A stretch of 40,340 bases of DNA from a virus. How positions within the stretch are numbered: position 1 is the first letter of the stretch; each line of letters starts with the position of its first letter. The notes under the pieces are model-generated. The model did not search any database. It was not told the origin of the DNA and saw only the letters and a program-made list of their open reading frames with translations. This document shows positions 8,807-15,368 of this stretch, piece by piece. The position numbers and the translations under genes were made by a program. The stretch is taken from the UHGV virus genome UHGV-1357953; one strand, 5' to 3'.

Positions 8807-8998
8807 ATGACCGATACCAGCCTGATTCCTGAGAAAGAAGTGATGAACAAGCTCGGTGTTTCATCACGTCAGACAATCTGGAACTATACCAAACGGCACG
8901 GATTTCCGAAGCCAGTCAGAACCCACCCCAAATCATACCTTCGTGAAGCTGTTGAAGGGTGGATTCTTAACGGTGGCGTTAACCAGAAATGTTCCTGA
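8807..8998 (+). CDS. AlpA-family excisionase-like HTH protein (63 aa)
   Basis: IPEKEVMNKLGVSSRQTIWNYTKRHGFPKP fits the AlpA/Xis pattern; last gene of the pL operon, 20-bp 3' overlap with int. Confidence 0.65.
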   Translation: MTDTSLIPEKEVMNKLGVSSRQTIWNYTKRHGFPKPVRTHPKSYLREAVEGWILNGGVNQKCS

Positions 8999-10157
8999 TG
9001 TGCCAGAACAATTTATCAGCGTGAAGCTCATACGCTTTGCGCTGAGCCTCTATCCAATCGTGTTTATTGTACACGGACATTATCCCGCCAAGTTCATGAC
9101 CGAGCATTCGCTCAGTAACATGAGGCTCGACATTCATCTCGGACAGACGTGTAACAAGCGTTCTTCTGAAATCATGTGTTCGCCAGTAACCTATATCCAT
9201 CCCTCCCCTTATTCTATTTACGAATCGGTTGGCTGCAGCGATGCTGATCGGTTTGTTTATGTCTTCTCCAGGGAAAAGAACATCATTGTACGTTGTCATG
9301 GCCTTTTCGAGGAAAGGCTTAATTTGTTCGAAGATTGGACGGCGGATAACATTACCCATCTTGCTATGCTCTTTCGGTACGGTCCATACGTTTTCCAGCA
9401 GGTCAAATTCTGTCTTTGTTGCCAGCCTAAGCTCTGAGAGCCTCGCCCCCCACAGCATAAGCATCTGATGAAGGAGCTTATTTGACGTAGACGCACGGCT
9501 TCTTTCAATAGCAATCCAAATCTTAGCCAGTTCGTGATACGACAGTACCCGATCCCCTACCTCAGCGCGGGAGCCGAAGTCCCTTGGCTGGATGCTCATA
9601 ATTGCGCAACTATCTATCAACTGACGCCGCATGCACCAACTAATTGCTGATCTTAGTTGACTTAGCACCTGCCTTGCTCGGCGTGGATTATCTTTTTCTT
9701 CTTCGGTAAGCAGGTCAACCCATTGCTTAACCGTGATAGAAGATGCCGGACGATTAGGGAAGGCGTCATGCATGCGCTTCATAACCGTTGATCGGTAAAG
9801 TGCCTGGGTCTTTTCTCTGAGAGTTGTAGAGACGTAGTTGTCGAACCAGTAGTCGAGACACTGGGCGACCGTCATGGAGTTCTCCACCTTCTCTTCAAAA
9901 TAGGTGCGTGGATCCGTTCCTGAGAAATAGAGCTTTCGCAAGTCAGCAGTGATCTGTCTGGCATCCTTCAAAGACAGGGATGGGTATCGACCAAGCCCAA
10001 GGCGATTAGGCTTGCCATGCCAGCGATAGCGGTACTGGAACTGGATGACCCCCTTCGGTGAAATTCGTACGCTGAGGCCATCTGCATCAGCCACTTCTTG
10101 TGGGCCCGAATATGGTTTACCATAAATAGTACGCAGTTTTGTGTCGCTTATAGCCAT
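8979..10157 (-). CDS. int: Tyrosine integrase (392 aa)
   Basis: N-terminal arm-binding-type domain, C-terminal catalytic region (..HDFRRT..LGHELGG..Y); adjacent to arm-type repeats. Confidence 0.9.
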   Translation of the reverse strand: MAISDTKLRTIYGKPYSGPQEVADADGLSVRISPKGVIQFQYRYRWHGKPNRLGLGRYPSLSLKDARQITADLRKLYFSGTDPRTYFEEKVENSMTVAQCLDYWFDNYVSTTLREKTQALYRSTVMKRMHDAFPNRPASSITVKQWVDLLTEEEKDNPRRARQVLSQLRSAISWCMRRQLIDSCAIMSIQPRDFGSRAEVGDRVLSYHELAKIWIAIERSRASTSNKLLHQMLMLWGARLSELRLATKTEFDLLENVWTVPKEHSKMGNVIRRPIFEQIKPFLEKAMTTYNDVLFPGEDINKPISIAAANRFVNRIRGGMDIGYWRTHDFRRTLVTRLSEMNVEPHVTERMLGHELGGIMSVYNKHDWIEAQRKAYELHADKLFWHIRNISG

Positions 10158-10159
10158 AA

Positions 10160-10470
10160 ATAATATTTGGTACGCTCAAAAATAATGGTTTGGTACACAT
10201 CTGGTACACAATATCACATGGACAACAGCGCACAGTAAACAACTATATTTGACGTTCGTAGACATACTCAGGTGAAAAAATGGTTGTTTTTCGAGTTATA
10301 ACAGACAGTTAATTAACTACAGTGGACAATGCTAGACAATGACAGACACAGATAAACAACCTACCTTCCTCTTTCACGATTACGCGCAACACCCCTGAGA
10401 ACCGCCATGAACAAGGGTTTCATGATTTGTGATTTTAGTTTGGTACGCAATTTGGTACACAACACAATTT
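10160..10470. other. attP region: five arm-type repeats TTTGGTAC(G/A)C (10167..10176, 10189..10198, 10202..10209, 10439..10448, 10451..10460) flanking a ~230-bp putative core
   Basis: Direct repeats clustered next to the int start; core not identified and no tRNA-like sequence found. Confidence 0.5.
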
Positions 10471-10800: not shown

Positions 10801-11088
10801 CTACGATGCAAGAATCCATACCAATAAGCATCCGATAATTGGGAAAGAAAAATCCAACAGACTTCCCACATCCCACACGCGCGGATCAAAACCGCCCCAC
10901 CACGGCATGTTGATACGTTTCCCTTTCCCAAACCTTTCTGTCCAGCGATATTCTGCCTGGGTGTGTTCACGCGCAATGAAGAACGTACAACCGGCTATCG
11001 CACCGTAAGCCCAGTTTCCGGTAAAAAGACCAATCAGTACCTGCGCAGCCACAGCACAAAACGCATGAAGGAAAGGTGTTATATCCAT
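10801..11088 (-). CDS. Small predicted membrane protein (95 aa) between attP and tailspike
   Basis: ATG 11088 with AGGAG RBS; two or three hydrophobic segments; the longer listed ORF overlaps the tailspike gene. Confidence 0.5.
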   Translation of the reverse strand: MDITPFLHAFCAVAAQVLIGLFTGNWAYGAIAGCTFFIAREHTQAEYRWTERFGKGKRINMPWWGGFDPRVWDVGSLLDFSFPIIGCLLVWILAS

Positions 11089-11122
11089 TATCGCTCCTTT
11101 AACATAAGGATAAATAAACACA

Positions 11123-13261
11123 TCATAAAATAGATTTCGTCTTTGTAACAATAACATCTACAAAATCGCCTGCAGATATAGCTGATGGTACTGTATCTGC
11201 AAGAGTAATCTTTCCTGAAGAGATGCTTTGCACATCTAATAATTTATTTTCAATCCCATCCGTATATACCAATTTGATATCACTGAGTGGAGGGTAATAA
11301 GTGATTGTTCCTTGGTATACATATATTTCACTACCTGAAATCGATTTCACTACATACCTGCCCCTTACAAGATTAATTTTGAGTTCAGATAAATCGGTTT
11401 TATAACAGGTAATTCCTGAACCAATGTTAGCCATACTAATATCAGTATCACTATAATAAGTAAGTGCTTTCCCTTGTTTTAAAGTAAAAGTATTTTTACT
11501 TTTCCTTGGTAAGGATGTGCTATTTTTGTAATATCTACCAGTAAAGCATAGCCATGAAAATGCAGTATTCACTACATTACCACCAGAATACACAGCTAAA
11601 CGAATTGCACTAACTGGAACCCCTTCATTATTAATCCTGATCTTAATGGAAGAAATATTAACAGCAGTGACATACCTATGGTTGGCAGAATCCCATTGCA
11701 TAGAAGAAGTTATGGCTTCTGTTTGTGAGGTTATGACATTCCCATCTCTATCTAATGCATACAGGTAAATGCGAAACGATGCCGTATCTGCTGAGAATGT
11801 AAACATATCACCATTTCTTACTGGTACATCTCCAGATTCCCATAACAACCCAAAATTCCGCATAAAAGCAAACTTAGAAGAAACCAGGTGACGGATATTA
11901 TATAAACCATCAACATCTGTTTGATATGCTAATGCACCAACTTCTCCATTGTTAGCACTGGATATAAATGGGGTGTTAGCATTTAAAGAAAACAATGTTA
12001 CTTCATCGGATATATTTTCCTGAATATGAAATACTGCATTCCCCTTGCCATTATCAGTTACCTCGACATAAGTGTAAGGCGATGGATTGTATGGCTCATT
12101 TGTATACGCAGGAGATGAAAGCCATGTAGCTTCAATTGAGTTATTCCACGTATATTCACCAAAGTTAATTATCAACTGTTGGTTAGTTGGGGATGATGGA
12201 TATCGTTCAAAACGAAACCCGTAGAAGTAATTGTTATCACCTCTTTGAATATCAATTTTACCTGCCCCCTCCATAGTTCCACCATAAAACTTATTGTGGT
12301 TATGATGATATGGATTATCAGCGAAAATGATATTATTCGTACGATTCAGATAAAAATAGTTTTCATTTATCCATCCTTTCTCAACTCCAAGAAAATGAAT
12401 TGTATCGACCTTTTTCAGGTTAAAGGTTGAGTATGCTATTGAATAATCCGTCGATGCCACCGAAGCATTATAATTTGCATATAACTGTAAGTAGTCGCAA
12501 CGCTCAATGTTTATATGCTGCCCTTTTGCCCCGATAATACGAATATCCGGTGTCGTTTCAGATGAAATACCAGAATTTCTGATAATCGTTCCGAAGTTTT
12601 GTCTTGGGTTGTTAGGGTTTGATGCATTCCCGCCAAGCAATACCCCTATTCCTGAGTGGGATATGGTAAAAACAGCATTGGTCATTTCGAGGCTGACATT
12701 ACGAAGATTTAATGTCGCCGTAATAATAAAATTACCTTCCGCTCGTAATGTTCTGGATGATTCTCGTGCATATTCTGCAGCCAAGATCAATGCAGATGTA
12801 TCATCTGTTATACCATCGCCTTTTGCCCCCCACCCTCTTACATCACAATCGTCCCTCCACCGAGATATCTGCAATTCAGGATATTTTTTAGCTCCATCCG
12901 GGTCTTCTAATTGCTGCCGTAGTTGATCAGGGTCATACTTCAGCACATTTGGAAAATAGAACTGCTGCGCACCACATGCATCATAAACAGCCATAGAATG
13001 GCCTTGCACAGTTACGAATTTGGCAATCTGTCCGTTATATACTGGATACCCAGCGGCATTGATGACGATTGGCTGTGCAACAGGAACGTGAGAACCATCT
13101 TCGTTCTCAACATAGACCTGAATCTGGTTATCAGGATTTACCGGGTCAGTGTCAATTTTACCGATATAAATTTTGCCATTAGCTACGGCTTTAAAAGAAC
13201 GCGCCATAGTGAAGAGTTGCGAAGGCATGCTCACTACAACATTGGCTGTAATGTCTGTCAT
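11123..13261 (-). CDS. Tailspike protein (712 aa): P22-type head-binding N-terminal domain, divergent receptor-binding body
   Basis: First ~110 residues ([42 protein letters not shown]) match P22 tailspike as recalled; remainder not recognised. Confidence 0.9.
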
Positions 13262-13677: not shown

Positions 13678-14406
13678 TTACGCCACATTTGAGCCATGTA
13701 GTAGGTGTTGTAGTGCTTTAACGCCTTCAGAATTGTAACGGAACGCCTCTACCTGTTTGCTGGAATGCGCCGATTTATCCAGGAAGAACTTCCCGTACTG
13801 CTCAGTTTTGAGGTTGTTTGCGTTAGCAATGCGACCAATCTTGTTGGCCGTTACTCCAAGCTGCTCTGCAACCTCCCCTGCTGAGTAGTAATGCTCTTCT
13901 ATTGCCGGAAGAGGTATTGCATTAAAACCAACGAGCGGGTTGATTATACTTGCTGCCGCTGTCTGCTTTGCCTCAGGCGCAAGATTTGGCATCAGATCGA
14001 ACAGATTGGTAACAGCTTCAACCGTCATTTTCAATGTTCGCGCTTGACGATACTCAACAAGTCCACTCGCTGATTTACCGCTTTTAATGTGCGCTTCTTG
14101 CATACTTTCAAGTTGGTCTACCAGTGAGCGGCGAACGGCTTTTGACTCGCGAGCGGCAACTCGCAATGCTTGCTTGATTGACATCTCAATGATAACCATC
14201 GAAGTTTTGTTCGCTTTTTGCACTACACTTTTTGTGTAGTGCTCTCCATCCAATTCATCTTCAATTTTCTCGATGAATTTGTTATTACGAACCTCCGGCT
14301 CACCGCACTGTCTACGAGCCTGATTTACCATCTCAAGAAGGCGCTGGCTGTCAATGGTTTTATCCGTGACAACGGATCCGATGTTTGCTACATTCTTAAA
14401 AGTCAT
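13678..14406 (-). CDS. Antirepressor-like protein with KilAC-type C-terminal region (242 aa)
   Basis: ATG 14406 with AAGGA RBS; C-terminal ..AGEVAEQLGVTANKIGRIANANNLKTEQYGKFF resembles the KilAC pattern. Confidence 0.55.
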   Translation of the reverse strand: MTFKNVANIGSVVTDKTIDSQRLLEMVNQARRQCGEPEVRNNKFIEKIEDELDGEHYTKSVVQKANKTSMVIIEMSIKQALRVAARESKAVRRSLVDQLESMQEAHIKSGKSASGLVEYRQARTLKMTVEAVTNLFDLMPNLAPEAKQTAAASIINPLVGFNAIPLPAIEEHYYSAGEVAEQLGVTANKIGRIANANNLKTEQYGKFFLDKSAHSSKQVEAFRYNSEGVKALQHLLHGSNVA

Positions 14407-14444
14407 TAGGCATTCCTTATGTGGTAGTAAGGGTGTGACATAGG

Positions 14445-14476
14445 CCGCCAGCAGCACACTGGCGGTTTTCTTTTTG
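14445..14476 (+). terminator. Plus-strand intrinsic terminator inside a minus-strand operon; candidate 3' end of a sar-like antisense RNA
   Basis: ccgccag/ctggcgg stem then ttttctttttg; no plus-strand CDS feeds it. Confidence 0.45.
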
Positions 14477-14494
14477 CGCCGTCCGGCGCACCAA

Positions 14495-15121
14495 TCAATG
14501 AATCCATTCCTCGCCGCGCAGTTTTGCCAGCATTGGCTGAGCGTTCTTTACGACAAAATTGTTGGTATCAAGATTCTTCATTTCACGAAGAAGTGATTTC
14601 TTGGTTTCTTCTGACATATAGCGAGTCTCATATGCGATATCGTAAATCCTTCCTGAAAGCTCAGAACAAATTTGCTTCATTCCTGGGTAGATGTGTTTGC
14701 ACATTTGTTGACTCTTCTCCATCCACAATTGTAAGTAGCAGAGATTAACCAGTTCTTCGTCAGTAAACTGTTTTGCAATCGGTGAGCATTCTGCCTGCCG
14801 ATCCAAAATATCCAGCACCCAGCGGCGGAACTCTTTGGCTACCGGAGTGCGAGCAAACATCGCGATTAGGTGGGCACCGCGTAGTGAGAAAACTCGCACT
14901 TTTTTGCGATAATTTCCTGAGGTACTCACTTCGAGTACCTGAGTCATTCCAGCGCTAAACTCATCGCTATACTTGTTATAAATCATTGTTACTGCACGAC
15001 TATTTGCGTATTTAAGTGCAGATGCAATATTAGATGATGTAAACCAAACACCATGCATATCACGGGTGGGCACCAACTCAACTCCGTGGAAGTTGTATTC
15101 TGATTTTGCTACAATATTCAT
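14495..15121 (-). CDS. ant: Antirepressor with Bro-N-like N-terminal domain (208 aa)
   Basis: NFHGVELVPTRDMHGVWFTSSNIASAL is Bro-N-like; ATG 15121 with AAGGA RBS. Confidence 0.6.
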   Translation of the reverse strand: MNIVAKSEYNFHGVELVPTRDMHGVWFTSSNIASALKYANSRAVTMIYNKYSDEFSAGMTQVLEVSTSGNYRKKVRVFSLRGAHLIAMFARTPVAKEFRRWVLDILDRQAECSPIAKQFTDEELVNLCYLQLWMEKSQQMCKHIYPGMKQICSELSGRIYDIAYETRYMSEETKKSLLREMKNLDTNNFVVKNAQPMLAKLRGEEWIH

Positions 15122-15194
15122 GTTAGTTTCCTTGCATACGGTTACTGACATAGAGGCCCGGTTTGTGTTCGCGCACTGCCGGGCTTCACTATTT

Positions 15195-15368
15195 TTATTG
15201 GATGACAACATCGCCCTTTGCCTCAAGTTTCATCAATAACTCCATTCGATAAGCTATCTCTGCCTGAATTGACCTATGGCATCTTTTTGCTGATTCGCGG
15301 ATATGTGAATCAACCTTTTCTGTAAAACGAACCTGACGCGGCTTGATGGAAGATATCTTTTCAGTCAT
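15195..15368 (-). CDS. Arc-like ribbon-helix-helix protein (57 aa), first gene of the antirepressor operon
   Basis: Hand-translated MTEKISSIKPRQVRFTEKVDSHIREASKRCHRSIQAEIAYRMELL; position equivalent to P22 arc. Confidence 0.45.
   Translation of the reverse strand: MTEKISSIKPRQVRFTEKVDSHIRESAKRCHRSIQAEIAYRMELLMKLEAKGDVVIQ

Follow-up and report, generated by a model that had tools for sequence, protein, structure and literature searches.

A P22-type prophage tailspike with a predicted depolymerase body for K4-like capsules of Escherichia coli

The window analysed here is the whole 40,340-nucleotide sequence of the UHGV virus genome UHGV-1357953. It is an excised, circularly permuted form of a P22-like temperate prophage. 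E. coli MS14385 carries this sequence as a prophage of roughly 40 kb between sbcB and dacD, with its integrase and tailspike at opposite ends and with genes for P22-type terminase, portal, scaffold, coat, gp4, gp10, needle and ejection proteins. In this strain, the inferred attachment site is at the end of the sbcB-dacD interval that is nearer to sbcB. As is typical of P22-like phages, the tailspike gene resides at the end of the late operon and adjoins an immI/ant region and the attP-int segment (Table 1). The immI-like region of MS14385 differs, and contains Arc-family genes, a gene for a protein with a P22AR C-terminal domain and a YafO toxin gene.

Table 1. Features at the tailspike locus, in positions of the window
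Feature	Position	Strand	Basis
Tyrosine integrase	8979..10157	minus	ORF; tyrosine-type recombinase annotation in matching genomes
Inferred attP core	10355..10384		30-bp overlap of two MS14385 prophage-chromosome junction matches
Small membrane-protein gene, 95 aa (phrog_1443, unknown function)	10801..11088	minus	E 2.5e-53
Tailspike gene	11123..13261	minus	Single ORF, 712 aa + stop (ORF list)
Two C-terminal beta-sandwich-like domains (about 418-581, 599-711), residues 413-712	11126..12025	minus	Model secondary structure
Right-handed parallel beta-helix, putative catalytic domain, residues 159-412	12026..12787	minus	AlphaFold (pLDDT mostly >90); Foldseek
Invariant-residue stack, candidate active site, residues 277-352	12206..12433	minus	47-sequence alignment, model
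Connector/recombination zone with 16-residue beta-helix cap motif, residues 114-158	12788..12922	minus	Homology start/end points
P22-type head-binding (virion anchor) domain, residues 1-113	12923..13261	minus	PF09008; Sf6/P22 N-domains in PDB
Two adjacent anti-repressor-type genes (phrog_1726, phrog_245)	13678-15226	minus	Upstream of tailspike

A first-pass annotation of the tailspike gene had proposed that only the first ~110 residues are of P22 type and that the remaining body is different; the interval it marked, 11123-12930, takes in the stop codon and residues about 111-712. Our searches agree with this division. Pfam family PF09008 (Head_binding) matches residues 1-113 over the full length of the model (E = 1.1e-66), and no second family is found in a Pfam search at E <= 1. 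A search of every PDB sequence aligned the N-terminus with two solved tailspikes, that of Sf6 (7sg7; residues 1-118, E = 1.9e-63) and that of P22 (8tvr/2xc1; residues 1-117, E about 1e-50). The protein thus carries the head-binding domain that is characteristic of P22-like phages, and the spike, presumably a trimer, would be fixed to the phage tail through residues 1-113. The full gene is present in 11 of 5,426 complete E. coli genomes with 96-99.7% nucleotide identity, where it is annotated as "phage head-binding domain-containing protein."

Residues 1-158 are common to P22-type spikes that have other bodies, including CUS-3-type endosialidases (about 91% identity). Residues 114-711 are common to relatives with a PF18668 anchor (93%), residues 134-712 to relatives with another anchor, found in proteins of a 771-aa type (94%), and in copies that share the body only, the DNA match starts near residue 144. 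Because the homology break-points of these differently anchored relatives nest within residues 114-158, this segment appears to be a zone of module exchange, at which bodies would be swapped by recombination. Because the segment is also found in spikes with other bodies, the truly body-specific part presumably begins near residue 159. A PDB entry named "Tail spike protein" (9vvr, 843 aa) matches residues 113-254 (E = 1.9e-15), a stretch that takes in the connector and the initial rungs of the beta-helix.

The body is rich in the residues that the first-pass annotation had noted (9.5% serine, 9.0% asparagine, 8.0% threonine and 6.1% tyrosine). The same annotation had called it unrecognised, which holds in one sense only. 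The bodies of the P22, Sf6, HK620 and CUS-3 spikes do not match it in PDB sequence searches or in tblastn searches of GenBank phages: P22- and Sf6-type PDB matches end at residue about 117-124, and tblastn matches end at residue 124 (HK620) or 183 (Sf6). Endosialidase domains PF12217, PF12218 and PF12219 are likewise absent at E <= 1 in Pfam, and similarity to endosialidase spikes stops at residue 158. The body is not an orphan, however: its profile match (phrog_18162, "tail fiber protein," E = 1.2e-299, profile positions 217-800) places it in PHROG 18162, and it is also part of a family that numbers a few hundred protein clusters. A search of 1.84 billion cluster representatives gave 452 matching proteins at E <= 1e-3 and 91 at E <= 1e-30; alignment over the whole body is limited to about 14 clusters, which include Pasteurella phage proteins. 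A tblastn search of GenBank phages found unannotated Vectrevirus genomes with 48% identity over residues 134-707, and tail fibers of the Pasteurella multocida phages PHB02, Pa7, Pmp1, ZA29 and F108 with 31-34% identity over residues about 122-711. We found no literature on the Vectrevirus PDP21 phages.

The GC content of the body cassette (window positions 11001-13000) is 36-40%, versus 45-53% for the remainder of the phage. This difference is consistent with acquisition of the body from a lower-GC source. Low GC is also a feature of K4-type kps region 2 and of the Pasteurellaceae.

A monomer was modeled with AlphaFold2 from a 47-sequence alignment (mean pLDDT 89.2, pTM 0.78). In this model, a right-handed parallel beta-helix spans about residues 138-412 and two beta-rich domains come after it. 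The best PDB matches in Foldseek are tailspike depolymerases, namely CBA120 TSP4, Klebsiella DpK2, Depo32 and K2-2 TSP, and Det7, although these matches are weak (TM <= 0.33, about 10% identity). The match to Sf6 is also weak (E about 1e-2, TM about 0.16-0.2), and the best match among viral models is a fragment from Pasteurella phage F108. Residues about 159-712 would be a beta-helix capsule depolymerase followed by two beta-domains.

Thirteen columns of the 47-sequence alignment, which extends to 23% identity, are invariant: G210, G244, Y277, W297, I298, N299, E300, F303, Y318, N323, E331, R350 and E352. H320 and N321 are nearly so. The model places the candidate residues among these (Y277 to E352) at the ends of strands, on rungs that follow one another at intervals of 21-31 residues, an arrangement that a substrate groove would be expected to show. 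Catalysis would most likely use E300, E331, E352, R350, H320, Y318 and Y277 within this groove of the beta-helix.

These residues could serve either of two chemistries, and we regard a lyase and a hydrolase as about equally likely. Three carboxylates would suit a hydrolase, whereas Glu/Asn metal ligands combined with Arg, His or Tyr would suit a uronate lyase. When a profile of the family alignment was searched against the PDB, the region of the cap motif (profile positions about 50-165) was the only part that aligned, with GH55, GH28 and AlgE epimerases. Because the cap motif alone matched, this search does not separate lyase from hydrolase. No catalytic rungs were aligned in it with members of the pectate-lyase superfamily (PF12708; GH28, GH55 and PL6-type), and close relatives of the body fall below the Pfam cut-off for that superfamily.

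The closest characterized relative of the body is gp17 of Pasteurella phage PHB02 (968 aa). This protein, also called Dep-ORF8 (109.6 kDa), is a capsule depolymerase that acts on P. multocida serogroup A; the recombinant enzyme produced translucent spots on 31 of 31 serogroup A strains and on none of the capsule-deficient mutants (PMC6090149). Pairwise alignment of the two proteins extends from end to end of the body, with residues 133-711 matching residues 361-967 of Dep-ORF8 at 31% identity (E = 7e-78). Both proteins keep the motifs GWINEN, YHHNHN, MEG and RFER, so that the likeness extends to the proposed catalytic motifs, and it includes the two C-terminal domains as well. No characterized relative is closer than this 31%, which falls short of the high identity to a tailspike of known specificity that would have spoken against the first-pass annotation. 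Its reading of the body as a beta-helix glycanase also fits the model, the fold matches to depolymerases and the homology with Dep-ORF8.

Dep-ORF8 differs from the tailspike in several respects. It has a T7-type N-terminal anchor, belongs to a lytic phage of the Autographiviridae and acts on a Pasteurella host, and its substrate is the type A capsule rather than the polymer made by KfoC that is predicted for the tailspike. The type A capsule of P. multocida is hyaluronan, which is unbranched, and the K4 polysaccharide of E. coli is a fructosylated chondroitin. Because the backbones of hyaluronan and chondroitin differ only at C4 of the hexosamine, distant homology between enzymes for these two polymers is chemically plausible. 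Dep-ORF8 is a virion-borne enzyme for an acidic, glycosaminoglycan-like capsule, and the tailspike is predicted to be the same. We found no literature on the chemistry of the Pasteurella enzyme, which a 2024 review of hyaluronidases omits.

The gene for a predicted 95-aa membrane protein begins 34 nucleotides downstream of the tailspike. The protein has no Pfam match. In strain JNE070796, the body is part of a 771-aa protein from a different prophage, one that encodes a T7 gp14-family core protein. Directly downstream of this alternatively anchored spike is a copy of the 95-aa protein (86% amino acid identity), and DNA identity continues past the tailspike stop codon into its gene. The presence of this copy and the identity across the stop codon indicate that the 95-aa gene travels with the body cassette. 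P22, Sf6 and CUS-3 carry genes that modify surface polysaccharides at the corresponding position.

We then surveyed 5,426 complete E. coli genomes for the body and found it in 15, comprising the 11 with the full gene and four with the body only. The genomes of PS_131_S11 (NZ_CP145099.1) and AST20 (NZ_AP043617.1) each contain two copies of the body, one with a P22-type anchor and one with the 771-aa anchor, at separate chromosomal positions. Fourteen of the 15 carriers have a group 2 kps locus that includes a KfoC-family gene. A sensitive blastn search identified kfoC homologs in 70 of the 5,426 genomes, and 13 carriers are within this set: MS14385 and EC11 with a locus type we call variant A, nine with variant B, and 23CRST013 and PEC011 with the KL4 locus. 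The hypergeometric probability is 9e-24 for 13 of 15 carriers, and 4e-18 when the carriers are collapsed to 12 groups with 10 hits (S87 and W46 counted as misses), but the genomes are not phylogenetically independent and these values therefore overstate the significance.

The capsule loci of carriers fall into related types. Region 2 of the MS14385 kps locus (variant A) encodes an epimerase, a KfoB-like protein, a 690-aa two-domain GT2 glycosyltransferase, a pyruvyl transferase, a UDP-glucose dehydrogenase and a 446-aa GT2 protein. Against the E. coli K4 enzyme KfoC, a chondroitin polymerase (PDB 2Z86), the 690-aa protein reaches 1,124 bits, and it is 73% identical to KL4 KfoC. This region is matched in 45 genomes, 27 of variant A and 18 of variant B, which lacks the pyruvyl transferase; 11 carriers are among them. 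An authentic K4 gene set is found in 23CRST013, whose 686-aa KfoC scores 1,455 bits against 2Z86, and the KL4 locus occurs in 20 genomes, these two KL4 carriers included. KL4 and closely related K4-like loci have been described by Gladstone et al. 2026 (PMC13171598). Strain S87 has a fourth locus type (NZ_CM151376.1, 1871777-1889065) with a polymerase 57% identical to K4 KfoC and also with a KfoB homolog, a UDP-glucose dehydrogenase and the 446-aa GT2 protein. No epimerase ORF is present in the 1.2-kb gap that follows kpsT in S87. Because this gene is absent, the S87 polymer may be without GalNAc, and the locus may direct a different glycosaminoglycan-like polymer, perhaps one based on GlcNAc.

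Independent support comes from a divergent allele of the body (63% identical; 766 aa, 98% identical to P0010) that is found in exactly two genomes, N1131 and 20AR0300. Both have the variant A capsule locus. Carriers of the body also differ in virion anchor (P22-type versus 771-aa type) and in the site at which the prophage is inserted. In carriers other than MS14385 the prophage is near evgA/dsdA or near hyaA/tRNA-Ser, and those of W46, PEC011, 100117 and AST240 are at sites other than that of MS14385. Because insertion sites and anchors vary in this way, simple clonal hitch-hiking is disfavored as the cause of the association.

The single exception is W46, which carries the tailspike at 99.1% nucleotide identity and has a K2-like kps region 2 (NZ_CP163115.1, 4236475-4251806) that includes a CDP-glycerol glycerophosphotransferase. 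The kps region 1 proteins of this strain and those of the flanking island do not differ from their MS14385 counterparts, so that a capsule switch may have followed lysogeny within one lineage.

Taken with the homology to Dep-ORF8, the gene association suggests that the tailspike is probably a capsule depolymerase for K4-like capsules with a chondroitin backbone, and that it sets the host range of the phage. The body would bind and cleave the group 2 capsule of strains whose kps locus includes a KfoC-type polymerase. The target capsules would be K4 and K4-like, probably with a chondroitin-type GlcA-GalNAc backbone as the element recognized. Cleavage of the capsule would let the virion reach the outer membrane, and it is in this manner that the body would determine host range. 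Some caution is warranted, as the tailspike of a prophage need not fit its present host, one carrier (W46) has a K2-like rather than a K4-like region 2, and the nearest characterized relative, at only 31% identity, has another polymer as its substrate.

The first-pass annotation had left the choice between O antigen and capsule open, and of the two it is the capsule that carriers have in common. Most P22-like phages use the O antigen, and the spike might be an O-antigen endoglycosidase like those of P22, Sf6 and HK620, with the capsule association arising as a by-product of O:K linkage in clones; MS14385, the closest host, has an O1 locus, as does EC11. A single O type was ruled out as the common factor, for the O loci of carriers are O1, O17/O44/O73/O77/O106-family and O166. 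Nearly identical bodies thus occur across at least three O loci, and only two carriers are among the 60 O1 genomes listed, of 102 that have the O1 locus. The body moreover shows no sequence similarity to those of the three O-antigen enzymes, and its characterized homolog acts on capsule. We therefore judge this explanation to be the most improbable of those considered. Hardly more probable is the proposal that the body serves as a receptor-binding module without catalytic activity, or is the decayed or mismatched spike of a defective prophage that has no current function. The capsule locus of W46 does not match, as this proposal would allow, but none of the 15 carriers has a broken ORF, and the P22-like genome around the gene seems to be complete. 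Sequences as distant as 23% identity also keep three glutamates, an arginine and aromatic residues without change, and a histidine nearly so, and the homolog Dep-ORF8 does degrade capsule.

A K4-like capsule might instead be recognized through a feature other than a chondroitin-type backbone, such as a side chain or other decoration that the types have in common, or something else that the conserved dehydrogenase and 446-aa GT2 genes produce. Many depolymerases need side groups, and genes for UDP-glucose dehydrogenase and the 446-aa, KfoG-like GT2 protein are present with high sequence identity in all four locus types, reaching about 97% of nucleotides between KL4 and variant A. The decoration genes themselves vary, however: KL4 has kfoD, kfoE, a HAD-family gene and an extra GT2 gene, variant A has the pyruvyl transferase, and variant B has neither. 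The substrate of the distant Pasteurella homolog, being unbranched, also argues against a need for side groups. We consider recognition of this kind unlikely, and favor the chondroitin-type backbone as the probable target.

A tailspike for K4-like capsules would be similar in design to the endosialidase tailspike of CUS-3, which is directed at the K1 capsule. The head-binding domain and connector of the two (residues 1-158) are about 90% identical, and in CUS-3 this anchor is fused to a body specific for a capsule rather than for an O antigen, as is predicted here. The CUS-3 prophage resides in strains that have the matching group 2 capsule, and the same pattern would apply to the present phage. 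The bodies, in contrast, are unrelated: that of CUS-3 is an endosialidase (PF12217, PF12218 and PF12219) whose target is polysialic acid. The spikes of P22, Sf6 and HK620 share with this tailspike the N-terminal head-binding domain, the position in the genome and, as predicted here, a right-handed parallel beta-helix body; they differ in that they cleave O antigen. The Klebsiella K2 depolymerases (Depo32, DpK2 and K2-2 TSP) and CBA120 TSP4 resemble the model in having a beta-helix that is followed by C-terminal beta-domains, although sequence identity is only about 10%, TM is <= 0.33 and the substrates are different.

Virion-associated enzymes that degrade glycosaminoglycan-like capsules are already known, and the tailspike is predicted to join them in this function. 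They include the K5 lyases KflA/ElmA, which act on heparosan, and the streptococcal enzyme HylP (PL16), which acts on hyaluronan; these are triple-stranded beta-helix proteins (PMC11669647). In the tailspike model, each chain forms its own right-handed beta-helix, unlike the triple-stranded arrangement. Neither KflA nor HylP was returned when the tailspike was searched against the PDB by phmmer and by profile or compared by Foldseek.

The body and the Pasteurella phage enzymes may represent a new family of single-chain right-handed beta-helix depolymerases for glycosaminoglycan-like capsules, with chondroitin-type K4-like capsules and the hyaluronan of type A as substrates. Such a family would be distinct from the classified hyaluronidase and chondroitinase families and from the triple-stranded beta-helix phage lyases, and the body would be the first receptor-binding enzyme identified in a phage for the K4 capsule group of E. 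coli. We offer this broader proposal tentatively, as its chances appear to be slightly less than even. A search for phage enzymes that act on K4 or chondroitin capsules found no characterized example in the open literature covered. Modular tailspike depolymerases are a known kind of protein; what is new is the predicted K4-like specificity, in a family that is enzymologically unclassified.

K4-like capsules are present in lineages of extraintestinal pathogenic E. coli, and the K4 polysaccharide serves industry as the source of non-animal chondroitin. If the prediction is correct, a K4-specific depolymerase could provide a typing reagent for K4-like strains, a component for anti-virulence treatment or phage therapy, and a tool for the preparation of defined chondroitin oligosaccharides. 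With regard to phage biology, the receptor-binding cassette and the small membrane-protein gene downstream of it appear to move as a unit between unrelated virion anchors, and the capsule specificity of a prophage spike may be readable from the genomes of its lysogens.
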